The notes under the pieces: model-generated
Told to the model about the DNA's origin: nothing
Seen by the model: only the letters and a program-made list of their open reading frames with translations
Databases searched by the model: none
Origin: Limisphaerales bacterium
GTDB taxonomy: Bacteria; Patescibacteriota; Microgenomatia; UBA1400; PJMF01
Length of the DNA stretch: 64,000 nucleotides
Direction: 5' to 3'
Assembly: GCA_044350895.1 (NCBI GenBank)
Contig: JBILGT010000004.1
Coordinates: forward strand, 3,829-67,828
Translations under genes and position numbers: made by a program
Shown here: positions 1,970 through 30,927 of the stretch, piece by piece
Numbering within the stretch: position 1 is the stretch's first letter
Layout of the letters: each line of letters begins with the position of its first letter

Positions 1970-2350
1970 TTATTCTTGAGTTGCGCTAGATTTGCGAAGG
2001 GAATCCTGCTTTTCACGAAGTAAGTCGCGGTAGGTTTTTGGATCACCAGTTTGAACTTCAACTTTTTGCTTTGCCTGTTCTTTTTGAGCAAGAGCAAGTT
2101 TCTTTTCTTCAGCAAGTTTAATTTTCTTGTGGAAGCGGTCTACAGCACCTTGTGCATCAACAAAACGTACTTCACCAGTGAAAAATGGGTGAGAGTTTGA
2201 AGTAATATCTGAGTGGACAACCTGGTATTCAACATCATCAATAGTCATTTTTTCTTGAGTAACTAAGGTTGATGCAGTAATGAATTTGTAACCGGTAGCA
2301 GCATCGATAAATACGGTTGGATACATGGTTGGATGGATATTTTTTTTCAT
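1970..2350 (-). CDS. rpmE: 50S ribosomal protein L31 (type B, no Cys zinc ribbon) with a Lys/Glu-rich C-terminal extension
   Basis: N-terminus MKKNIHP ... HPFFTG ... VDRFHKK matches L31; it sits upstream of prfA on the same strand. Confidence 0.8.
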   Translation of the reverse strand: MKKNIHPTMYPTVFIDAATGYKFITASTLVTQEKMTIDDVEYQVVHSDITSNSHPFFTGEVRFVDAQGAVDRFHKKIKLAEEKKLALAQKEQAKQKVEVQTGDPKTYRDLLREKQDSLRKSSATQE

Positions 2351-2435
2351 AATGCTTTCGCGAAGTACCTATTTTACCAGAAACCCTCGAGAACTGCAAA
2401 AGGAGATTTTGCGAACAAGCCAGTATAATGGTGAC

Positions 2436-3014
2436 ATGAATTTACAAACATATTTGGCTGAAAATCCCAAAAAGCATTTAATTTTCGATTTTGATGAAAC
2501 GCTTTTCACTTTGCTACTTCCATGGGAAAAATACATCAAAGAATTAACGCAGAAACTGCTCGATTTTGATCCCACACTTGCTGAGTTCAGTCAGGGCAAA
2601 ATTCTCAATGATGTTGAAAATGAAGCAGTGCGCAGATGGGGGGAACCTGCAATGCAGATCAGAAGGACATATAGTGAACAGTTTGAATCTACCTTTTTAA
2701 CAGGTGCAGAAGAGCATAGTGAGTTAACGGCATTTGTCAAAGACAATCATAAACACTTTGAATGCAGTATCTGGACTTCAAATATGCGGACTACAATCAT
2801 GCCGATTTTGCAGAAAAATGCTTTGGATCAGTGTTTTAAAAAAATTGTCACAAAAAGTGACGTTTCATTTACAAAACCCAATCCAGAAGGGTTTGAATCA
2901 ATTTTTGATTCCTCTACTCAGAAAAAAACGGAGTATTTGATGATTGGTGATAGTCAAAACGACAGAGGTGCTGCACAAAATGCAGAAATAGATTTTTTCC
3001 ATGTCACAGATTAG
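2436..3014 (+). CDS. HAD-superfamily hydrolase (subfamily IA-like)
   Basis: Has HAD motif I FDFDETLF (DxDxT) and motif IV GDSQND. The ORF-track start at 2325 overlaps rpmE and translates to low-complexity sequence, so the ATG at 2436 is preferred. An AGGAG at 2401 is too far upstream to act as its RBS. Confidence 0.6.
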   Translation: MNLQTYLAENPKKHLIFDFDETLFTLLLPWEKYIKELTQKLLDFDPTLAEFSQGKILNDVENEAVRRWGEPAMQIRRTYSEQFESTFLTGAEEHSELTAFVKDNHKHFECSIWTSNMRTTIMPILQKNALDQCFKKIVTKSDVSFTKPNPEGFESIFDSSTQKKTEYLMIGDSQNDRGAAQNAEIDFFHVTD

Positions 3015-3097
3015 TCTTGAAGATTTGACAGCAAGTGAACTTGGCTTTTAATAAAATCAGTTTATAATCCGCCTATAATTAGTTGAAAAAGCAAGGT

Positions 3098-4279
3098 ATG
3101 AGTAAGCTTACAGAGCTCAATAAAGTGTCAAGATCTGAATGGGATTTTATCAAGGATGGAGCAAAATCTGATCTCCAAAGAGCTGAAATGCGCCTGAGTA
3201 ACCATGAGTCTTGGGAGGATTTTAAACTTACTTCAACAATACTTCTGCGCCAGTTGTGGCAAAACAAACTCTATCGCTCTGAGAGAAGAGAGTTCAGAGA
3301 AACATTTGGTGATTCTCGCAAAGCTTCAAACGAACTTTTCTCTTTATTTTTCATTAATTTGCTTGCTGAATATTGGGACAAAATCAATAAGCCAAAATTG
3401 CCCTCGCTTATCCTTGATGGTCCAGTGCGGTCTGGTACTAGTACCCAAGCAGAACTTTGGCAAAAGTATTTTGACTTTGAATCTCTGCAAATGGGAATGA
3501 TGTTTCGAGCAATTGCTTTTATTTCTCAAATGAATGGATTAACTCCTCCAGAGGTAATCAAACTTACCAAAGGAGGGTATTTTCACTTTTGTATTCGATT
3601 CCAGGATGATCAGCCAACTTTTGAGGTATCGTGTACCCATCCTGATCATCAATTTCTGCAAAATATAGAAAAATCTCAGTTTGGTATTTTGCGCACTTCA
3701 GAAATTGACAAATATGCTTCTTCACTCAATTCTGATCCAGAACGTGCTGTAGAAAAAATGGTAGTAAATGCAGTCAATATGTATCTTGAAAAAAATAATG
3801 GTGTAGTAATGGAAGGCCGCAATTTAGCATCGATAATACCATCTTTTTCGCTAAGAGCATTCTATCTTGCGGTGAGCGATGAAGAAGCAAAACGACGGGA
3901 AGTAGAGAGTGTTAAACGACAGAGTAAAAAGAGTGGAAACCCACCACCTTCAGATGAAGAGTTGGCTCGATTGGCGCAAATGGTTGTGGAAAGAAATGCA
4001 AGTGACACGCGCAATGGAATTTTGCTATCACCCGAGGATGCTTTTAGGTCAGAAAAATATACGGCTATATATAATACAGGCGAAGGTGGCCCATATTATT
4101 TATTTAACTCAATGGTAAATGTGCATGACATTATTAGGCTTGATGACCTTTTTATTCCCAATATTTATGCATATATGCGGCTGGTACTTTTCACAGGATA
4201 TTCTGAACTACCAAGTAATTCACTGATGCACTTTTCGCGCAGAAGAAATCGAGAGCCAGGTAATAGGGCGTTGGCATAA
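3098..4279 (+). CDS. cytidylate-kinase-fold protein with a degenerate P-loop and large N- and C-terminal extensions (possible pseudokinase)
   Basis: LILDGPVRSGTSTQ parallels Cmk IAIDGPAGSGKST with K replaced by T. LQMGMMFRAIAF parallels Cmk LDTGAMYRAVAL. ERNASDTRNG...LSPEDA parallels the Cmk LID segment. Start could be TTG 3083 or ATG 3098. Confidence 0.45.
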   Translation: MSKLTELNKVSRSEWDFIKDGAKSDLQRAEMRLSNHESWEDFKLTSTILLRQLWQNKLYRSERREFRETFGDSRKASNELFSLFFINLLAEYWDKINKPKLPSLILDGPVRSGTSTQAELWQKYFDFESLQMGMMFRAIAFISQMNGLTPPEVIKLTKGGYFHFCIRFQDDQPTFEVSCTHPDHQFLQNIEKSQFGILRTSEIDKYASSLNSDPERAVEKMVVNAVNMYLEKNNGVVMEGRNLASIIPSFSLRAFYLAVSDEEAKRREVESVKRQSKKSGNPPPSDEELARLAQMVVERNASDTRNGILLSPEDAFRSEKYTAIYNTGEGGPYYLFNSMVNVHDIIRLDDLFIPNIYAYMRLVLFTGYSELPSNSLMHFSRRRNREPGNRALA

Positions 4280-4370
4280 GAATCTTTTCACTGCTGATTT
4301 AATATAATTTTCTGATACAATAGTTAACTTTGTAGGAAATAATTAAACCCATAATAATATAATAGGGGTT

Positions 4371-5444
4371 TTGAATAAAGTAGAAATGAAATTAGTTGAA
4401 CAGACTTTTACTGAACGAGAAGCTCAGGCGTGTAATACCATCATTGATGTACGCAAACAATTTTTAGGAGTATATCCTTGGCAAATCATTGTTGGTTTGG
4501 ATGGCGGTATGGCTACAGGAAAAGGCGTTCAAGCCAGAATCCATCGTGAAAGCGGTTTTTTGATAGCAAGTAGTGGTGGTTTTTATCGAGCTTGTGCTTG
4601 GTTATGTTGCTACCTCAATATTTTTGATGCTGAGAAAATCTCCACTTCTTTGCATGAGATTGCACAACAGAGAGCCCAGGGGAACGACACTGGTGCGGCA
4701 GAACTTCATGCTGAACTAAAAGCATATATCTACTCTAAAGAAGAGTTGATGATTCATCTGATCCAAGACGTTCAGCTTGATTTGGTTACAAATGATAATA
4801 CAGAACAAGTAGTAGTAAAACATCCATTTTTGGGAGCACAACAGTTCGCACTTGATGCAAAAGTTGTTCTGAGACAGCCACATGTAGAAGAAGTTACAAA
4901 AATCCTCAGTGGCTTGCAGCGAGTTACAAGTGTTGTTGATCTGCAAATTAGAAGCTTGGCACAGCGAACACATCGCTTCTTTGGTGAAGGAAGAGACAAA
5001 CGAGCAAATCTGTCAGGACTTGAGAATACTTGGATTGGATATACTGCGGTTACCCCAAAAGTGCGTAATCAGCGTGAAGTGCAGCGGAGAAAAGAGCAGC
5101 TTGGTGTACGAAACTTATCTAGAGCTGATGAACATGCTGCAATTATGCAAGCTCAGGCTCGTGATGAATCGGATATGAGTCCACAGCGAAAATTTGGCCG
5201 ATTACTCCGTAGGGATGAAGCACTAAAATCAGGGGCATATGACGGATTTATTGATACAACAAATTTTACACCGTGTGAAGTTGCGCTCATAACATATTGG
5301 TTTTTGGCAAATCACTTTGCACCAAACTCACCATTTGCATTCTCCATAATGAAAGAAATCGAGCAAACCTATGTGGTAGATAGTAAGCGAAGTGTACTTA
5401 AACTCCAACGTAAACATAACCTCGTATATGCAGGTGCAGACTAG
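4371..5444 (+). CDS. extended cytidylate-kinase-like protein (P-loop retained), paralog of the preceding gene
   Basis: IVGLDGGMATGKGV (GxxxxGKG P-loop), SSGGFYRACAWL (NMP-binding), QARDESDMSPQRKFGRLLRRDEAL (LID-like) and IDTTNFTPCEV (Cmk C-terminal IDTS...EEV). It is 357 aa against roughly 220 aa for canonical Cmk. Start could be TTG 4371 or ATG 4386. Confidence 0.45.
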   Translation: MNKVEMKLVEQTFTEREAQACNTIIDVRKQFLGVYPWQIIVGLDGGMATGKGVQARIHRESGFLIASSGGFYRACAWLCCYLNIFDAEKISTSLHEIAQQRAQGNDTGAAELHAELKAYIYSKEELMIHLIQDVQLDLVTNDNTEQVVVKHPFLGAQQFALDAKVVLRQPHVEEVTKILSGLQRVTSVVDLQIRSLAQRTHRFFGEGRDKRANLSGLENTWIGYTAVTPKVRNQREVQRRKEQLGVRNLSRADEHAAIMQAQARDESDMSPQRKFGRLLRRDEALKSGAYDGFIDTTNFTPCEVALITYWFLANHFAPNSPFAFSIMKEIEQTYVVDSKRSVLKLQRKHNLVYAGAD

Positions 5445-6682
5445 CCGCTACATTTTTCAATGAGCTCTTCTACAGTACAGCTCACTTGATCTCCAGTTTT
5501 CATGTTTTTCAATGCAACTGTGTTCTCCGCCATTTCTGTTTCACCAATGATAACAACATAGAGAATTTTCTTTTGGTCGGCCAGTTTGAACTGTTTACCC
5601 AGTTTATCAACAGCAGGGTAGACCTCCGTTTTAATGCCGCTGGTACGAAGTTGTGTTGCAACTTTAAGTGAGGTTGCAGCGTACTGTTCTTCAAATACTG
5701 TAACAAGCACTTGTGATCCCAAACTTTCAGCGGGGAGCAGCTTCAGTTCATCCAAAACTTCTACAGTACGATCGAAGCCGACCGCGAATCCAACAGCGGG
5801 CATTTGATAGCCAGAGAGTTGGTTGATGAGATTGTCATAGCGACCGCCGCCACCCAAAGAACCACTTGGATATTCGGGTACTCGTGACTCAAAAATAAGT
5901 CCGGTGTAGTAATCTAAGCCGCGAGCAAGGTTGGGGTTAAATTTGAGTGCAGCAGTAGGCACACCCAGTGCTGTAGCCTTGTCTACGATCTGCTGTAATT
6001 GTGCTGATGGTGTGACCTTTTGCAGTTCGCTGAGGAGCTTATCTGCTGCTGTTTGGGTAAGGCCCTTCGTGACAAGTTCGGCAGCTACTTCCGCAGGTGT
6101 TTGCTTATCAAGTTTATCAATTGATTGTGTCAATGACATCACTGTAACTTCGGGTGTAGAAAATGGTGTCAAAAATGACATGAGCGTCTCGCGGTCATTG
6201 ATCTCAATCACTACATTGGCGAGTCCCAGCTCTTTGTAGACAGAGTAGAAAACTGCCAAAACTTCAGCATCTGCCAAAGAATCGGTACTGCCAAAAATGT
6301 CACAATCACTTTGTGTAAATTCGCGGTAGCGACCTTTCTGCGGTTTGTCGGCACGGAAAACATTTTGGATTTGATAGCGACGGAAGTAGCGTGGCAACTC
6401 ACCTTGATACTGGTAGAGAATACGGGCAGTTGGCACAGTCTGGTCATACCGCAAGGCAATATCGCGATCGCCTCGGTCTTTGAAATTGTAGACTAGTTTG
6501 TCGGCTTCGTCGCCGTATTTACCAAGCAAAAGCTCTGCATATTCCAAAGTAGGAGTTTCAATAGGTTCGAAACCGAACTTCTCGTAGACTGCCTTCATTT
6601 TGGCAATAACGTAGTCACGCTTGCGCTTTTCTTCTGGTAAAAAGTCTCGAAAGCCTTTTAATGTTTGTACTGGTGATGACAT
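5441..6682 (-). CDS. hisS: histidine--tRNA ligase
   Basis: MSSPVQTLKGFRDFLPEE ... class II aaRS motifs, GRYDNL, and a C-terminal anticodon-binding domain. The ATG at 6682 is preceded by AAGGAA; the 15 upstream codons of the ORF-track call are unlikely to be translated. Confidence 0.9.
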   Translation of the reverse strand: MSSPVQTLKGFRDFLPEEKRKRDYVIAKMKAVYEKFGFEPIETPTLEYAELLLGKYGDEADKLVYNFKDRGDRDIALRYDQTVPTARILYQYQGELPRYFRRYQIQNVFRADKPQKGRYREFTQSDCDIFGSTDSLADAEVLAVFYSVYKELGLANVVIEINDRETLMSFLTPFSTPEVTVMSLTQSIDKLDKQTPAEVAAELVTKGLTQTAADKLLSELQKVTPSAQLQQIVDKATALGVPTAALKFNPNLARGLDYYTGLIFESRVPEYPSGSLGGGGRYDNLINQLSGYQMPAVGFAVGFDRTVEVLDELKLLPAESLGSQVLVTVFEEQYAATSLKVATQLRTSGIKTEVYPAVDKLGKQFKLADQKKILYVVIIGETEMAENTVALKNMKTGDQVSCTVEELIEKCSG

Positions 6683-6757
6683 AGATTCCTTTTTTAAAGA
6701 AAGATTTATTCTCATTCGACACGGCAAACAACATTTGCCTTGATGACCTCACTATCC

Positions 6758-15906: not shown

Positions 15907-16632
15907 TTACGATTCAGTATCTCTTGATAACAAATTTCTTTGTTCAATAAAGAAATCACGCAGCAACCCAATTTCCCGTATGAGGTTTTTTTTCGAATCA
16001 CTACTGTGAAATACAGTATTGTGTTCACTTCCTTGGAAGAGAGAACGAAGTGTTCCGTAGTACCGTGAGGTTTTCAAAACCTTTAAACGCCACTCGGCAC
16101 CAACGTTTTTGCGCCATGTTTCAATTGCATCATTCCCTTCAAGAAATAGCACTGTGGTTGGCCAATGAAGCATAGTATATGCCCATTCATGCCAACGATT
16201 AGGATGTTCGACTTCATATCTAGAAGAGTTTATGGCAGGTTTTCTGAGCTGACGTCTTTGTGCTCCGCCTTTATAAAAATCTTGTAAAAGTGGATAGTCG
16301 AAGATGAGTGAAAAAACTGCAAATGGAAATAATCCTAGGTTGGGTGAAAAAGTGTAATTAATCAATGCTTCTGTTAATTCTGGATCTGATAAACCGGGCT
16401 CAGTATTAAGTAATAAATGTCCATTGTAGCTAATAGCCTCATCCATGCGTGGTTTGATAAGAGCAATTGTTACTTCTCCTTGTTGTAAAGCCGTACTGGA
16501 TGCGACGGAGTCGAGTAGTGAAACAACGGTATTAACTTTGCCAATAAGTGGAAGGGCATCATGATTACTAGTAAGAAAAGTATTCCCTTTATCTGAGTAA
16601 AGTGGTTGGCGTTCAATGAGTGCCTTAGTCAT
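15907..16632 (-). CDS. hypothetical protein (241 aa), co-oriented with and 18 nt upstream of the HxHxQ protein
   Basis: Long ORF with coding-like composition and no recognisable motifs. Confidence 0.5.
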   Translation of the reverse strand: MTKALIERQPLYSDKGNTFLTSNHDALPLIGKVNTVVSLLDSVASSTALQQGEVTIALIKPRMDEAISYNGHLLLNTEPGLSDPELTEALINYTFSPNLGLFPFAVFSLIFDYPLLQDFYKGGAQRRQLRKPAINSSRYEVEHPNRWHEWAYTMLHWPTTVLFLEGNDAIETWRKNVGAEWRLKVLKTSRYYGTLRSLFQGSEHNTVFHSSDSKKNLIREIGLLRDFFIEQRNLLSRDTES

Positions 16633-16781: not shown

Positions 16782-16867
16782 GCCACTGTGGCGGAACTGG
16801 TAGACGCGTGGGTCTCAAAAACCCATGAGCCTTAAAACTCGTGTCGGTTCGATTCCGACCAGTGGCA
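16782..16867 (+). tRNA. tRNA-Leu (anticodon CAA), type II with long variable arm
   Basis: Acceptor GCCACTG/CAGTGGC, anticodon loop CTCAAAA, long variable arm TGAGCCTTAAAACTCGT, T-loop TTCGATT. CCA is not encoded. Confidence 0.85.
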
Positions 16868-16887: not shown

Positions 16888-17817
16888 GTGAGCGAAAACG
16901 ATTCATTATTTACCCTTCCATTTACCGTTATAGAACAGCTTGGGACTCGGTCAGAGTTATCCCCTGAAAGATATAAGCCTTCATACATTTCAAGAATTTT
17001 AAATAGAGCAATTGCTCCAGAATTTCATAATCCACAAGCAAGATTTTTGAGGGGTCATTTTTTTATTGAGCCACCAGAACGCTTCTCAACATTAAATTCT
17101 GGCAGCAGAATAACTTTTAATTCAGGTGATAAGCAGGTGGTGCTGGAAGGAATGTCATACCCAGGATCAACTCATGGTAAGGAACTATTTGATCAACTTG
17201 ATGAAAAGGTTTCTAACATAGATGTAAAAAGCTTGAATGAAGAGCAGTTATCAATTGTCGCTGCATTTTTAACTATTTGTAGCGTTACTATTCATCCATT
17301 TCGCGATTCAAATGGCAGAGGAGCAGTAGGATTAGCTGATGTATTTCTCAGATCTAACACAGGTACAACCTTCGATTATGAGAAATTGGTTGAGCATAAT
17401 CAAACTTTAGTTAATTTATTAGTGATTGGTTCATTAAGTTTATTGCCACCCTCCCACAATCCTGAAATATGTGCCATGCAGATGGCCGTTGAGGACAAAT
17501 ATTTGGAAATAAAAATTCCTAACATGCAGAATGCTTCAGTTGAAGAGGTATCAGCATTTCTGAAAGATTTTTCAGATACTATCACCGCATTCATACGAAC
17601 TTTTGATGTGGCTCAAGCCACTGAAAAACCTGCCAGAATATTTGATCCCAACTATAGTATTCATAAGTTGGCGGCACTTTTCAGAGAAGTACATAAACCG
17701 ATCGATAGTCAGGAACGTGTTAAACAGATCCAGGCCAATATAAAAGCTATTTTTCAAGCGGAGCAGGCGTTGCAAAGCAGAACCGCTGAGACACCACCTA
17801 CCGAAGCAGATAAATAG
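16888..17817 (+). CDS. Fic/Doc-family protein (candidate AMPylase/toxin-like)
   Basis: TIHPFRDSNGRGAVGL matches the Fic core HPFx(D/E)GNGR with G replaced by S. A GTG start at 16888 lies 20 nt after the tRNA; the start is uncertain. Confidence 0.5.
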   Translation: MSENDSLFTLPFTVIEQLGTRSELSPERYKPSYISRILNRAIAPEFHNPQARFLRGHFFIEPPERFSTLNSGSRITFNSGDKQVVLEGMSYPGSTHGKELFDQLDEKVSNIDVKSLNEEQLSIVAAFLTICSVTIHPFRDSNGRGAVGLADVFLRSNTGTTFDYEKLVEHNQTLVNLLVIGSLSLLPPSHNPEICAMQMAVEDKYLEIKIPNMQNASVEEVSAFLKDFSDTITAFIRTFDVAQATEKPARIFDPNYSIHKLAALFREVHKPIDSQERVKQIQANIKAIFQAEQALQSRTAETPPTEADK

Positions 17818-27899: not shown

Positions 27900-28802
27900 A
27901 TGCAAAGAAAAATTGGAGCACATGTATCAACCGCTGGTGGACTAGAAAATGGCGTCATTAAAGCGCAGTCAATTGGTTGTAATTGTTTTCAATTATTTTC
28001 TGGTAGTCCACGAATTTGGCAGCGTAAAAAGCTTGCTGAAGTAGAAACTGAAAAATACTTTGCAGAGCGAGAAAAGTGGGGGATAGGTCCAGTTATTACG
28101 CATGCTCTGTACCTCGTCAACCTAGCAAGTGATAAAGCGGAAAATGTACAAAAATCCTTTAATTCTTTGAAATATGAACTGGAATTTGATGCGGCAATTC
28201 AAGGCGGGGGAGTTGTAGTGCATCTGGGCAGTCACCAGGGTAGGGGATGGGCGAGTGCAAAGGATCAAGTTGCGAAAGTCGTGGGTGATCTCCTTCGTGA
28301 AACACCTGAGAATTCTACCTTTTTGATTGAAAATGCCGCCGGTCAGAACGGAAAAGTGGGAGATGATCTGGGAGAGATTAGAGAATTGCTTGAAGTAATT
28401 GAAAAAGATGGTCAGTTTGTTTCCAAAGGGAGAATTGGTTGGTGTTTTGACACCTGTCATGCTCATGCTGCTGGATACTATTTGGGAGAATCTGTTCCTG
28501 AAAACGTAGTGATGGCTGAAAAAATTACTCGGCAGCCACAATCAGCTCTCAAAACAATCTCTGAACAAGGCTTATGGGAAATGCTCAAATGTATTCACGT
28601 CAATGATAGTCGTGATCCATTCGGTAGTGGCAAAGATCGACATGCCAACCTCGGTGATGGTAATATTCCCCAAGAAGATTTACGTCATTTTCTGCACTTT
28701 AGTGAACTAAAGCACATCCCATTAATCCTCGAAGTTCCTGGTTTAGATGGTGAAGGTCCAGATGCAGCTAATGTTGAACGTCTGAAAAAGATTCTTGAGT
28801 AG
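27900..28802 (+). CDS. nfo: endonuclease IV (AP endonuclease, TIM barrel)
   Basis: KIGAHVSTAGG ... CFQLFSGSPRIW and His/Asp/Glu metal ligands (HAHAAGY, HVNDS). Confidence 0.85.
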   Translation: MQRKIGAHVSTAGGLENGVIKAQSIGCNCFQLFSGSPRIWQRKKLAEVETEKYFAEREKWGIGPVITHALYLVNLASDKAENVQKSFNSLKYELEFDAAIQGGGVVVHLGSHQGRGWASAKDQVAKVVGDLLRETPENSTFLIENAAGQNGKVGDDLGEIRELLEVIEKDGQFVSKGRIGWCFDTCHAHAAGYYLGESVPENVVMAEKITRQPQSALKTISEQGLWEMLKCIHVNDSRDPFGSGKDRHANLGDGNIPQEDLRHFLHFSELKHIPLILEVPGLDGEGPDAANVERLKKILE

Positions 28803-30609
28803 CTACTGGTAGTATTGTTTCTTCCAATTCTGACAATTCTTCTGTTTTGTTGTTCAGTTGCAATATGAGAAGGTGTTTCAAAAGCGCGTGGATAGGATTG
28901 GCTGATGGAGAAAGTTCATGTTTGAGAGTTCGCAGCGGCGAGGCCAAATTAACATCTGCAACAAAAATATCATTAAATAAAATTCTTTCAAAAGATGCAC
29001 TTGGAACAAAAATAATCGATAGGAGAGACTGGTACAAATGTCCAATACGAACTTGGTCTGCCTGATTCAAAACTTCGAGGTTCCCAAGATCATCATCTTC
29101 TTTCAGTTTGGATAGAAGGTTATAGTAATCAGCGGCTTGCAGTGCAAATGGATCTTCAGAAAGTGGCAAGCCACACGGTCCCATCACCACTCCATAGTCT
29201 GCATCAAAGTAACATCCCTTACCTGTTAAATATTCAGGCGGGACATACCAGTTTTCACCATTCACAGTGACTTGAACGTATCCTTGCAAATTGCTGAGCA
29301 TTTCACTTTTTTCTTCACCAGATAGTAGCGCAAACGCAGCTCCACCACCTCGAATATCCATTACAGCGGTGCGTGGGATAGTTGGCCTAAATTTAAGCAG
29401 TGAAGTTGGTGTCCCTGTGATACAGTGTGCCCAACTCGCAGCACTTTTGAGCGGTAAAGTGGAACTTAAATTGACGCTTGCAACAAATTTTTTGAGCGCA
29501 GCTTGTTCTTCTTTCTCCAATTTTTCGCCGTTTGATTTTTTAACTTCCAGTTGCCATGCTGTTCTAATCTCTTCAAGATCTATTTGAAAATCCTTTTGCT
29601 TATCGGGGTCATAGTTTAGCGCATGATTTTCTACCCACTTGAGTAGCGTTTTTTTAACTGTGTTGATCAACAAATCAAATGCAACAACTTTTTCAGAATG
29701 TTCACCTGGTTCATGTGCAAGCTGTGTGAATTCTGATAAACAAAATGACAAAACAGTGGCGAGTTGTAGTTGTGCAGCAACTTCTGGAAGATTGGGGAGG
29801 TCTCGATCAATATCACTGCGCCACCTGGCCTTATTCTTATAAATAATTTGTTCGATACGTTCGAGAGCTTGACCAGTTGGGATATGCACCGCAGTGGCAA
29901 TTGTTTGATGGTCAGGATGCACTTCTGTATCAGTGGTAATTCGCTGTAGTCCGCCGCCTGTTTGAGCTGCTACTTCTTTGAGTACAACAGGTAACTGTTT
30001 GTTTGGGTCGTAGCTTCGATACTGCCGGAATAAAAATCCAGTTTCAGTTTTTTCATAAATATTTACAAAGACATAGTTACGCTCATCAAGGCCAGGATAA
30101 AGTTCTTGCTGTGAGCCGCGTGGACTGATAAACATCAAGCGTTCACCAACTTGGACACGATCGCTGCCCATCCAAGCTTCAACATACCTTGCAACTGATT
30201 CTTCAAGTTTTGCGCGCTCAGTGGGCTTGCCATCTTGCTCAAGGCGTTCCACAAAGTTATGAGCAATTTCACTGACTTTCTCCGTATAGCCATTGCGCAT
30301 GCCATGTTGGTCGTACTCATACACTACTGAAGCTCGCAAAAATGCATATTCATCAAAAAAGGAGGTGAGATCGGCTGTGAGTTGATTTGTAACAAGCTGC
30401 TGAGATTCAGCTTCTCGAGAAATATCATATGCTCCAAAGTACCGCTCAGAACCCCAGGTTATAAACTCAGGCTTTTTAAACAACCGTTCAGGCTGCAGCC
30501 CTTGAAGACCTTGGGCAAGAGATTCAAGCCATGAAGGAGTACGAGCTGATAAACGTTCAGCTTTTTCGGGTGGTTTGGAAAATGATTCTGGTGACAAAAA
30601 ACTCCTCAT
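28768..30609 (-). CDS. large hypothetical protein (about 613 aa)
   Basis: Long ORF with an acidic C-terminus and no recognisable motif. The first 46 codons of the ORF-track call translate AT-rich intergenic sequence, so ATG 30609 is preferred. Confidence 0.5.
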   Translation of the reverse strand: MRSFLSPESFSKPPEKAERLSARTPSWLESLAQGLQGLQPERLFKKPEFITWGSERYFGAYDISREAESQQLVTNQLTADLTSFFDEYAFLRASVVYEYDQHGMRNGYTEKVSEIAHNFVERLEQDGKPTERAKLEESVARYVEAWMGSDRVQVGERLMFISPRGSQQELYPGLDERNYVFVNIYEKTETGFLFRQYRSYDPNKQLPVVLKEVAAQTGGGLQRITTDTEVHPDHQTIATAVHIPTGQALERIEQIIYKNKARWRSDIDRDLPNLPEVAAQLQLATVLSFCLSEFTQLAHEPGEHSEKVVAFDLLINTVKKTLLKWVENHALNYDPDKQKDFQIDLEEIRTAWQLEVKKSNGEKLEKEEQAALKKFVASVNLSSTLPLKSAASWAHCITGTPTSLLKFRPTIPRTAVMDIRGGGAAFALLSGEEKSEMLSNLQGYVQVTVNGENWYVPPEYLTGKGCYFDADYGVVMGPCGLPLSEDPFALQAADYYNLLSKLKEDDDLGNLEVLNQADQVRIGHLYQSLLSIIFVPSASFERILFNDIFVADVNLASPLRTLKHELSPSANPIHALLKHLLILQLNNKTEELSELEETILPVATQESFSDVQH

Positions 30610-30927
30610 AGAGAGGAGCACGTGCGTAAGATAAAAATACAGAAAGAATACGCGCGATGCTCGTCGATTCCTGTAAGCATTGAACGCTATACAGAGTATT
30701 TTGAAGACCGGACTTATGAAGATGTACTTCACATACCGTTGCGGCACAGTTCCGGAATTTCACCGGATTCCACAAAATACGTATCATTCTTATAGCAAGT
30801 TGCGAGAGTGTTGTGAAGAGAGAATTTTACTGAGTTCTTATTTAGTTATTATTTTTCATATTTTTTTGCTCGGCAATTAAGTAAAAAAATTGATTAATCA
30901 AAGTAAATATAATTCAAATACCGCTTG

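Follow-up and report, generated by a model that had tools for sequence, protein, structure and literature searches.

Between the genes for a HAD-IA family hydrolase and for histidyl-tRNA synthetase (hisS), the 64 000-nucleotide stretch of DNA analysed here (the window, W) contains two deeply diverged members of a long cytidylate-kinase-like family. The first, Cmk1, lacks the Walker A lysine and the second, Cmk2, retains it, as the preliminary description had noticed; the lysine is missing from all orthologs of Cmk1 too. Since every copy known has another residue in place of this lysine, which acts on ATP in such kinases, Cmk1 probably has a role different from ordinary CMP phosphorylation. We tentatively favour a reading in which Cmk2 would be the working NMP kinase and Cmk1 a neofunctionalised paralog maintained by selection, perhaps a transferase using Arg111.

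Layout of the locus and family membership

The locus comprises the following elements (coordinates in the window):

2325–3014, + strand: HAD-IA family hydrolase (PF13419, 78.5 bits), conserved neighbour on the upstream side, bounding the slot to the left
3041–3068, + strand: candidate sigma-70-like promoter TTGGCT-16-TATAAT, approximately 30 nt 5' of the Cmk1 ATG
3098–4279, + strand: Cmk1, 393 aa, Cmk family, P-loop without lysine; frame open from TTG 3083
4280–4385, unstranded: spacer between Cmk1 and Cmk2, 106 nt, AT-rich
4386–5444, + strand: Cmk2, 352 aa, divergent long Cmk with intact Walker A; frame open from TTG 4371
5441–6727, − strand: hisS, convergent to Cmk2, right border of the slot

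The starts of Cmk1 and Cmk2 are the internal ATGs used in the public gene calls of four independent assemblies (Cmk1 is called as 393 aa in three to four of them), and the HAD-IA gene is called from 2352 or 2436. Both Cmk genes have the same DNA in all four assemblies, and the missing lysine is thus no sequencing error. The exact sequence of Cmk2 is already public under the label ‘cytidylate kinase’. The candidate promoter agrees with 10 of the 12 consensus positions, which is a consensus match only; shuffles of the region hold more such sites. TATAAT- and TACAAT-like hexamers are present in the spacer, where no terminator-like site was found. The HAD-IA gene is kept in synteny in the related loci L002, L003, L006 and L007. 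Its product missed all NCBIfam equivalog cut-offs and is given no specificity here; PpaX, phosphoglycolate phosphatase and YjjG resemble it too weakly, below threshold, to assign a nucleotidase role.

HMM matches, transitive homology and the predicted folds place both proteins in the Cmk family, and these three lines agree on two adjacent Cmk-like genes with the motif order of Cmk, as originally proposed. Cmk1 passes the gathering score of PF02224 (Cytidylate_kin; 52 bits for a curated cut-off of 26, E = 1e-13), and its family profile matches Streptococcus pneumoniae Cmk (1q3t) with E = 1.9e-14. Cmk2 alone has no Pfam match and is linked to PF02224 by transitive homology only, through its orthologs P0004 and P0005, which carry this domain; its profile search of the PDB returned weak Cmk matches in two segments, ordered as in Cmk. 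An exhaustive HMMER search retrieved 33 relatives and, once these were aligned with both families, PF02224 was matched by 34 of 35 sequences. PF13189 (Cytidylate kinase-like family 2) was matched by 11 of the 35 relatives and by neither Cmk1 nor Cmk2 at E ≤ 10. The HMM comparison suggested beforehand is thereby positive for Cmk1 with PF02224 and negative for Cmk2 itself, and negative for both with PF13189. Both also miss the cut-off of TIGR00017 ((d)CMP kinase equivalog, EC 2.7.4.25; 135.55 bits), with 53.1 bits for Cmk1 and 20.5 for Cmk2, and the NCBI rule therefore names neither of them (d)CMP kinase.

AF2 models of the two proteins, built on seven sequences, point the same way. In the PDB, Foldseek gave only bacterial CMP kinases as the best 15 matches of Cmk2 and the best seven of Cmk1 (probability 1.0, target-normalised TM 0.50–0.69), with no unrelated P-loop family ahead of them, so that the proposed structural check came out in favour of Cmk. 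Both predicted structures display the NMP-kinase fold with the NMP-domain insert of the bacterial Cmk type. The model of Cmk2 has a pLDDT of 75.6, whereas that of Cmk1 is of low confidence (58 overall, below 50 in the P-loop), too low to place Arg111. To deepen the alignments, the 35-sequence alignment was used as a profile query, which brought back only four proteins that were already known.

Bacterial Cmk (PF02224/TIGR00017; Escherichia coli 2cmk/1kdo, S. pneumoniae 1q3t, Yersinia pseudotuberculosis 4e22) thus provides the best HMM and structural matches, the same fold and a shared order of motifs: P-loop, S.G..YR, NMP-domain beta-sheet insert, GRD, LID arginines and RD..D. Cmk1 and Cmk2 are 125–165 aa longer, owing to N- and C-terminal extensions and, in Cmk2, to a helical insert. 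Accordingly, the ‘large insertions’ attributed to both genes consist mainly of terminal extensions; a sizeable internal insert is present in Cmk2 only, and the extra length of Cmk1 lies in terminal extensions of approximately 100 aa (N-terminal) and 60 aa (C-terminal) around a core of normal size. Neither is large size special to this pair: a broader group of long Cmk-like proteins (P0006–P0031 and P0036, syntenic slot genes included) reaches about 250–400 aa. This set shares derived features with Cmk1 and Cmk2, namely a helix preceding strand 1, an ‘h-F-x-P’ motif in a C-terminal extension, and ‘RN..D..R..G.LL.PEEA....YD..(I/L)DT’ with a four-residue insertion relative to canonical Cmk. The corresponding ‘GILL.P..A....Y’ motif of Cmk1 contains the four-residue insertion typical of the set. 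The Walker lysine is kept throughout, Cmk1 being the sole exception, and Arg110, which binds cytosine, is missing from many members.

A defence-island or phage origin of the variable slot was also considered and gained no support: PADLOC (anti-phage defence) had no match for Cmk1, Cmk2, the HAD gene, the slot gene of L006 or P0006, PHROG models matched neither Cmk1 nor Cmk2, and a peptide-pattern scan of viral contigs revealed no relatives.

Active sites of Cmk1 and Cmk2

In canonical Cmk, cytosine is recognized by S36, R110 and D132 and stacked by Y40, whereas R41, R131, R181, D185 and R188 contact the phosphate and the pentose; the R188A, R131A and R110A mutants are inactive, R188A having been made in the Yersinia enzyme (PMC3603445). 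The corresponding elements of the two genes are given below (E. coli Cmk numbering after the equals sign or before the arrow), and the motifs quoted in the preliminary description (DGPVRSGTST and MGMMFR for Cmk1, DGGMATGKG and SGGFYRA for Cmk2) proved correct.

3416–3445, + strand: Cmk1, remodelled P-loop D107-G-P-V-R111-S-G-T114-S-T116, with T114 at the position of the Walker A lysine and R111 at x4
3485–3508, + strand: Cmk1, NMP-binding motif LQMGMMFR; R137 (=R41) kept, S36 → M132, Y40 → F136
3809–3823, + strand: Cmk1, MEGRN motif; R241 (=R131) kept, D132 → N242
3854–4078, + strand: Cmk1, LID and C-terminal core; R267 (=R157), R299 (=R181) and D303 (=D185) kept
4124–4276, + strand: Cmk1, conserved extension at the C-terminus, with the basic tail FSRRRNREPGNRALA at its end; AF2 low-confidence here
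4500–4589, + strand: Cmk2, P-loop DGGMATGK46G and NMP motif S62-S63-GGF-Y67-R68
4623–4766, + strand: Cmk2, helical insert in the NMP-binding domain (AF2 helices 82–127), with no counterpart in E. coli Cmk
4983–5261, + strand: Cmk2, GEGR203-D204, LID R227/R230, AR259-D-ES-D263 and GRLL...YDGFIDTT

Cmk1 has lost K18, S36, D132 and R188, the last three being CMP contacts. The cytosine-recognition set is thereby altered to Met (S36), Asn (D132) and Phe (Y40), and the R188 position varies among orthologs (R/E/D), leaving no conserved equivalent. For R110 the alignment is ambiguous, an invariant arginine standing in the adjacent position. The phosphate-binding arginines R137, R199 and R241 (E. coli R41, R92 and R131), the pentose-side pair R299/D303 and the LID arginine R267 are kept. 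The P-loop GPVRSGTST is identical in all three full-length members (W, P0001 and P0002) and no other of the 38 Cmk-like sequences under comparison has it, 35 of 35 carrying G.GK(G/S/T).

Conservation is indeed highest precisely where the site is altered. With statistics limited to the three full-length family members, 76% of the positions in the segment spanning the P-loop and the NMP motif are invariant, against 40–62% in other regions and only 10% in the long, helical N-terminal extension, strongly indicating that the altered site is constrained and not decaying. The C-terminal extension is invariant at 48% of its positions among orthologs, and its basic tail is near-identical in four of four sequences. 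No dN/dS value follows for Cmk1, whose only close copies are identical and whose orthologs are saturated. The orthologs P0001, P0002 and P0003 (55–62% identity) preserve the full frame; a word-indexed protein search and peptide-pattern scans of GTDB genomes, JGI metagenome contigs and viral contigs yielded only these three, and back-translated DGPVRSGTSTQ found no Cmk1 relative beyond them in metagenome contigs. The lysine-less family as known comprises about four sequences, all in one small clade. A literature search on lysine-less or CPR cytidylate kinases found none.

Cmk2 retains K46 of Walker A, S63, Y67, R68, R203-D204, the LID arginines and R259/D263, so that K18, S36, Y40, R41, R131, D132, R157, R181 and D185 of bacterial Cmk are all kept. 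It differs by the lack of R110, replaced by Thr, although the Ser, Tyr and Asp of the cytosine-recognition set are present; for R188, an arginine lies two residues off within an insertion of 2–4 residues, where the alignment is ambiguous. Given these two points, even its CMP specificity is presumptive. With a dN/dS of 0.10 (versus L004), the gene is under purifying selection. Its helical insert (about residues 80–127) is its least conserved segment (21% invariant), and a comparable insert occurs in slot-type genes. A protein search with Cmk2 returned no homolog beyond P0004 and P0005. Cmk2 is probably the phosphotransferase that serves the organism for ATP:(d)CMP, or for a broader range of NMPs.

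The slot between HAD and hisS

Using hisS as a phylogenetic yardstick (84–92% HisRS identity among W, L002 and L006–L008), we compared the contents of this slot among close relatives. Three arrangements emerged:

— Cmk1 together with an intact Cmk2, in W and L003.

— Cmk1 alone, in the 17-kb locus L002, arranged HAD-Cmk1-hisS with a spacer of approximately 20 nt and no Cmk2 at the locus. Cmk1 accordingly needs no adjacent Cmk2, which weakens the earlier suggestion that a pseudokinase works as the partner of an active kinase.

— A single long lysine-bearing Cmk, in sister CPR genomes (6264–7379 in L006, P0036 in L007 and P0010 contained in L008), sharing chromosomal position and orientation with the Cmk1/Cmk2 locus and presumably the counterpart of Cmk2.

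As had been stated, the window holds no short canonical cmk: beyond Cmk1 and Cmk2, no Cmk-like ORF was found among its 302 stop-to-stop ORFs. This weighs little, since the slot of sister genomes is occupied by a long lysine-bearing Cmk. The sequence covered amounts to 64 kb of this genome and 17 kb of L002, and another cmk may lie beyond it.

The three Cmk types of the slot have only 21–29% mutual identity, and each forms a separate clade with 100% bootstrap. Cmk1 and Cmk2, which the preliminary description had presented as tandem paralogs, do not behave as recent duplicates: they share about 19% identity (hhalign E = 2e-5) and are recovered as sisters with a bootstrap of 7%, and Cmk2 is closer to the slot-type family (hhalign probability 98%, E = 9e-14). 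We also considered whether the slot type could be a fast-drifting ortholog of Cmk2, which is unlikely, as Cmk2 keeps 55% identity across its deepest split (W versus L003) and has only 24–27% to the slot type within the L003/L006/L008 group. An accelerated evolution of the slot type after loss of Cmk1 is possible.

Possible roles of Cmk1

Almost all P-loop kinases require the Walker A lysine, and we know of no active NMP kinase without it. Type I thymidylate kinases, with an arginine in the P-loop, and sulfotransferases, with Lys/Arg in their phosphosulfate-binding loops, offer precedents for a basic residue at x4. In the neofunctionalised transferase that we favour, the former NMP site would bind a phosphorylated nucleotide and the remodelled P-loop an anionic donor, Arg111 would assume the charge-stabilizing role of the lost lysine, and group transfer would continue with an altered acceptor and/or donor; Cmk1 would then be no conventional CMP kinase. 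The alternative first suggested, two kinases of new specificity, may also apply. A stepwise gain of the arginine followed by loss of the lysine is plausible, since P0030 has both (DGLARSGKGT). A bolder proposal, in which Cmk1 actively catalyses group transfer with the x4 arginine in place of the Walker A lysine as its catalytic basic residue, an arrangement otherwise known from sulfotransferase phosphosulfate-binding loops, and can substitute for Cmk in L002-like genomes, appears unlikely. Against the favoured reading itself, multiple active-site losses next to a usually adjoining intact paralog are a classic pseudoenzyme signature, and the missing conserved equivalent of R188 counts against a catalytic Cmk1 as well.

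Almost as likely as the neofunctionalised transferase is a non-catalytic pseudokinase, in which the Cmk fold would serve as a phosphate-ligand binding module with a regulatory or scaffolding role, and the retained arginines might hold an NMP or NDP (as a sensor), a phosphoprotein or a 5'-phosphorylated RNA end. The loss of K18, S36, D132 and R188 fits this role, R188A by itself inactivating Cmk, as does the retention of the phosphate-binding arginines, expected of a phospho-ligand binder. An intact paralog stands beside Cmk1 in W and L003, and the gained conserved basic tail and long helical N-terminal extension could mediate interactions. A documented phosphoprotein-binding module of this kind exists in the GK-like domain of MAGUKs, an NMP-kinase descendant that lost catalysis and reuses its phosphate pocket for phosphorylated partners (PMC10171801), although this domain is found in eukaryotes, descends from Gmk and not from Cmk, and is embedded in multidomain scaffolds. 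However, the P-loop of Cmk1, with both glycines, the Ser/Thr pair and the new arginine, and not the NMP site alone, remains its most conserved element, which is unexpected for a pure acceptor-site binder like the MAGUK domain; such a binder would need neither P-loop features nor the LID arginine, which is kept too. Moreover, Cmk1 is the sole Cmk-like gene in the L002 slot, where sister genomes have a lysine-bearing Cmk.

The remaining explanations fare worse. That both genes encode ordinary CMP kinase isozymes, Cmk1 being a normal (d)CMP kinase despite its substitution, would agree with its better fit to the Pfam Cmk model (52 bits, versus none for Cmk2) and with its lone position in L002; we nevertheless hold it improbable, as the Walker lysine is missing together with three CMP-contacting residues (S36, D132, R188), the R188A form of Yersinia Cmk is inactive and Cmk1 scores far under the TIGR00017 cut-off (53 versus 135.55). 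Slightly less probable still is a convergence of Cmk1 on sulfotransferase-like or other non-ATP donor chemistry, with the R-S-G-T-S-T loop binding PAPS, APS or another activated group. The sulfotransferase 5'-PSB loop (P-[KR]-[ST]-G-[ST]-[ST]) has a basic residue two positions before its glycine and a Thr at the Walker-lysine position, and Cmk1 reproduces this [KR]-S-G-[ST]-[ST] arrangement; yet no sulfotransferase family matched it even at E ≤ 10, none occurs among its best 50 Foldseek matches, neither a 3'-phosphate-binding motif nor a catalytic-base candidate was found in it, and the annotated part of the window showed no genes for sulfur activation. The 5'-PSB loop does document a functional phosphate/sulfate-binding loop devoid of the canonical lysine (PMC6081452). 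Type I thymidylate kinases (G..R.GK[ST]) likewise resemble Cmk1 by their arginine at x4 but retain the lysine. With no detectable sequence or best-fold kinship to either group, both likenesses are motif-level analogies. Finally, the view of Cmk1 as a decaying remnant or annotation artefact, which the loss of a normally essential catalytic residue might have suggested, is effectively refuted by an intact 393-aa ORF with identical DNA in four assemblies, by orthologs at 55–62% identity that keep the full frame with a core 40–76% invariant by region, and by the invariance of the altered P-loop itself.

P-loop NMP kinases are the textbook case of an indispensable Walker A lysine, an assumption that Cmk1 puts to the test: it could illustrate either the relocation of a catalytic charge within the P-loop or the passage of a bacterial NMP kinase to a pseudoenzyme, as in the MAGUK GK domain. 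If the x4 arginine were catalytic, Cmk1 would be the NMP-kinase counterpart of the ‘with-no-lysine’ protein kinases, or a present-day intermediate between kinase and PSB loop, and would be able to replace conventional Cmk in genomes like L002. The organism is an uncultured member of the CPR (Patescibacteria), and for one cultivated parasite of this group a diet of host RNA has recently been proposed, with Cmk as a strongly expressed enzyme at the centre of nucleotide interconversion (bioRxiv 10.64898/2026.06.21.733656); how such cells phosphorylate NMPs therefore bears on their metabolism. The sharing of one slot by three divergent Cmk types, together with the many long Cmk-like proteins devoid of Arg110, suggests that ‘Cmk’ annotations on these proteins may hide varied specificities.

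The two genes and their family

The adjacent genes Cmk1 and Cmk2 share the strand of a HAD-IA hydrolase gene lying 5′ of Cmk1, and are followed, 3′ of Cmk2, by a convergent hisS. Their start sites were taken from the public gene calls of four independent assemblies, all of one organism, each at an ATG internal to the open frame.

Coordinates of the two genes in the window
3083-4279, + strand: ORF1, open frame of 398 aa (ORF scan)
3098-4279, + strand: Cmk1, 393 aa from the internal ATG (public gene calls)
4371-5444, + strand: ORF2, open frame of 357 aa (ORF scan)
4386-5444, + strand: Cmk2, 352 aa from the internal ATG (public gene calls)

The genes are separated by a 106-nt AT-rich spacer, and a candidate sigma-70-like hexamer pair (consensus match) is found 30 nt 5′ of Cmk1. 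As neither gene differs in DNA sequence between the four assemblies, the features described here are not sequencing errors.

Both ORFs had been described as Cmk-like, and HMM, profile and fold searches confirm this. Cmk1 matches Pfam Cytidylate_kin at 52 bits (curated threshold 26, E=1e-13), its family profile retrieves the Streptococcus pneumoniae Cmk 1q3t (E=1.9e-14), and the best seven Foldseek matches of its AF2 model, a poor one and the weaker of the two (pLDDT 57.7), are Cmk. Cmk2 is a divergent member of the known family: its sequence by itself gives no Pfam match, a profile search of the PDB returns weak Cmk matches in two segments, in Cmk order, and the best 15 Foldseek matches of its AF2 model (pLDDT 75.6, pTM 0.71) are all bacterial CMP kinases. 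An exhaustive HMMER search with the Cmk2 family profile yielded 33 relatives, mostly of 250-400 aa; once these were aligned with both families, PF02224 was matched by 34 of 35 sequences, the sole miss being Cmk2 of the window. Proteins of both families are currently labelled ‘cytidylate kinase’ in public records; the TIGR00017 scores of Cmk1 (53 bits) and Cmk2 (20.5 bits) do not reach the NCBIfam (d)CMP kinase equivalog cut-off of 135.55 bits. The window has 300 further stop-to-stop ORFs, none of which encodes a Cmk-like protein, in agreement with the reported lack of a short canonical cmk. With both proteins Cmk-like and no other such ORF in the window, the assignment made in the preliminary description stands.

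The ‘large insertions’ attributed to both proteins hold for Cmk2 only, which has a helical insert of approximately 48 aa in the NMP domain, together with a short N-terminal helix and a C-terminal extension of approximately 55 aa. The Cmk1 core (approx. residues 101-330) matches an ordinary Cmk in length, the excess of the protein being terminal: approximately 100 helical, poorly conserved N-terminal residues, and approximately 60 conserved C-terminal residues terminating in FSRR..R..GNRALA. This basic tail (4232-4276, + strand) hardly varies among the four Cmk1 sequences; Escherichia coli Cmk ends in ...KLALA, a likeness that is probably coincidental. The long relatives have in common a pre-strand helix, a C-terminal ‘h-F-x-P’ extension and the derived motif ‘RN..D..R..G.LL.PEEA....YD..DT’, which has four residues inserted compared with canonical Cmk; the length traits are not peculiar to the pair. 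Cmk1 also bears derived marks of this set and therefore descends from the long Cmk-like lineage, not from an imported canonical cmk.

A remodelled P-loop in Cmk1

Among 38 aligned Cmk-like sequences, including E. coli Cmk, the Walker-A lysine is absent only from the Cmk1 family, so the loss first noticed in a single gene is genuine. The altered loop, G-P-V-R111-S-G-T114-S-T (Cmk1 numbering), is invariant in the window and in the orthologs P0001 and P0002. In canonical Cmk of Yersinia and E. coli, phosphate is bound by Arg41 and Arg131, cytosine is hydrogen-bonded by Ser36, Arg110 and Asp132 and stacked upon by Tyr40, and Asp185 and Arg188 contact CDP; the mutants R110A, R131A and R188A are inactive (PMC3603445). 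According to the alignment, Cmk1 has K18 replaced by T, S36 by M and D132 by N, has no conserved equivalent of R188, and has gained an Arg at P-loop position x4, while R41, R92, R131, the LID R157, R181 and D185 are kept. Cmk2 keeps K18, S36, Y40, R41, R131, D132, R157, R181 and D185; Thr occupies its R110 position, and the alignment at R188 is ambiguous. Across the 38 proteins, an R110 equivalent is missing from about half of the long Cmk-like set, including Cmk2 and the lysine-bearing proteins found in its place in related genomes (‘slot type’ hereafter). Base specificity of ‘Cmk’-annotated proteins in this set may thus depart from that of the canonical enzyme.

The remodelled P-loop and NMP segment form the most conserved part of Cmk1 (76% invariant among orthologs 55-59% identical overall); the N-terminal extension is 10% invariant among the same orthologs. 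The altered site is constrained rather than decaying. Cmk1 would not be a conventional CMP kinase, yet would be under selection. Cmk2, with a dN/dS of 0.10 (dS 0.35) against the related locus L004, would be the working NMP kinase, as would the slot type elsewhere.

What Cmk1 does can be read in several ways. Our tentative preference is for a neofunctionalised transferase that would still carry out transfer, Arg111 taking over the role of the lost Walker-A lysine. The main rival, which we rank close behind, is a non-catalytic pseudokinase binding a phospho-ligand. Four active-site residues were lost together and an intact paralog usually sits beside Cmk1, which favours such a pseudokinase, and the guanylate-kinase-like domain of MAGUK proteins provides a precedent (PMC10171801); however, Cmk1 also occurs without an adjacent Cmk2 (locus L002), and a pure acceptor-site binder would have no use for what the P-loop retains or has gained (two glycines, a Ser/Thr pair and the x4 Arg) or for the LID arginine, which argues for a catalytic Cmk1. 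A stepwise route from Lys to Arg is plausible, since one long relative (P0030) combines the x4 Arg and the Walker Lys in one P-loop. The catalytic reading is further favoured by the basic residue found at this loop position in other enzymes, being catalytic in type I thymidylate kinases. The same holds for the PSB loops of sulfotransferases, which are structurally P-loop-like (PMC6081452). A sulfotransferase-like chemistry for Cmk1 could be proposed by analogy at the motif level, but HMM and fold searches lend it no support.

The lysine-less family is very small, with a fragment in addition to three full-length sequences, all of a single clade, and our literature search returned no report on lysine-less or CPR-specific cytidylate kinases. 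The case is of relevance because a recent study of a Patescibacteria parasite feeding on host RNA proposed a key role, with high expression, for Cmk (bioRxiv 10.64898/2026.06.21.733656).

A variable slot beside hisS

Gene order is conserved among related genomes (HtrA, RF1, L31, HAD, slot, hisS, M29 peptidase, MazG, methyltransferase), and the content of the slot differs.

Slot content in the window and in related loci
Window and L003: Cmk1 and Cmk2
L002: Cmk1 only, approximately 20 nt from hisS
L006, 6264-7379, - strand: one lysine-bearing long Cmk
L007, 6294-7436, - strand: one lysine-bearing long Cmk (P0036)
L008, 6253-7395, - strand: one lysine-bearing long Cmk (contains P0010)
L010 and L011 (more distant genomes): no Cmk

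The slot-type proteins measure 371-380 aa. A scan of GTDB representative genomes, L006-L008 included, with a Cmk1 sequence pattern detected no Cmk1. For the part of HisRS that is also available from L003, the window groups with L004, and the two are the outgroup to L002, L003, L006, L007 and L008; all three slot states therefore fall inside one tight group. The left border is also variable, since the HAD gene, adjacent to the slot in the window, L002, L003, L006 and L007, is missing from L008 (6253-7849).

Identity among slot genomes reaches 84-92% for HisRS and 56-62% for HAD, and orthologs are 55-59% (Cmk1) and 55% (Cmk2) identical. Slot-type genes share just 38-43% identity with one another although their flanking HisRS are 87-92% identical, indicating a gene either unusually fast-evolving or repeatedly replaced. 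Between the three types, identity falls to 21-29%. Each type forms a clade (bootstrap 100%), Cmk2 pairs weakly with the long relative P0006 (60%), and Cmk1 and Cmk2 are recovered as sisters in 7% of replicates. In profile comparisons, Cmk2 matches the slot type best (98%, E=9e-14), ahead of Cmk1 against the slot type (93%, E=5e-7) and Cmk1 against Cmk2 (76%, E=2e-5). This ranking and the bootstraps rule out a recent tandem duplication. On these comparisons, the slot type is the nearer counterpart of Cmk2, but too divergent for a plain vertical ortholog. The slot would have undergone either cassette exchange, differential retention of old paralogs or a sharp acceleration after loss of Cmk1. Searches with PADLOC and PHROG models and of viral contigs connected the slot neither with defence systems nor with phages.

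Taxonomic labels and other genes of the window

The window HisRS is 83-85% identical to that of three GTDB MAG contigs, two of them labelled Pseudomonadales or Methylococcaceae, and its next matches are a ‘Patescibacteria group’ MAG (59%), Ca. Roizmanbacteria (55%) and Ca. Shapirobacteria (47%), which assigns the window to a Microgenomates-side CPR bacterium. The name of one related MAG points to a lake time-series sample of 2018. The GenBank MAG contigs of L007 (CAYUES010000006.1), L008 (JBILVZ010000004.1), L009 and L010 are syntenic with the window (HisRS identity 83-85% for L007/L008, 60-64% for L009/L010) and labelled ‘uncultured Pseudomonadales’ or ‘Methylococcaceae’; these labels are probably taxonomic errors, or the contigs mis-binned.

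Other features of the window
30647-30798, - strand: AdoCbl (B12) riboswitch (RF01482, 66 bits)
28768-30645, - strand: ORF of approximately 625 aa directly 3′ of the riboswitch
15907-16632, - strand: 241-aa ORF, of which only residues 147-223 match nucleoside-diphosphate kinase (PF00334, 33.8 bits, profile positions 57-128 of 135)
16888-17817, + strand: 309-aa ORF, marginal Fic/DOC domain match (25.3 bits, cut-off 24)

The ORF 3′ of the riboswitch has no Pfam (E<=1), NCBIfam or PDB sequence match, and is predicted to be a B12-regulated gene without family match in a CPR genome. With the 241-aa ORF, the window has a further nucleotide kinase-like protein that is both elongated and divergent, and a tRNA gene (16782-16867) adjoins the Fic/DOC-matching ORF.
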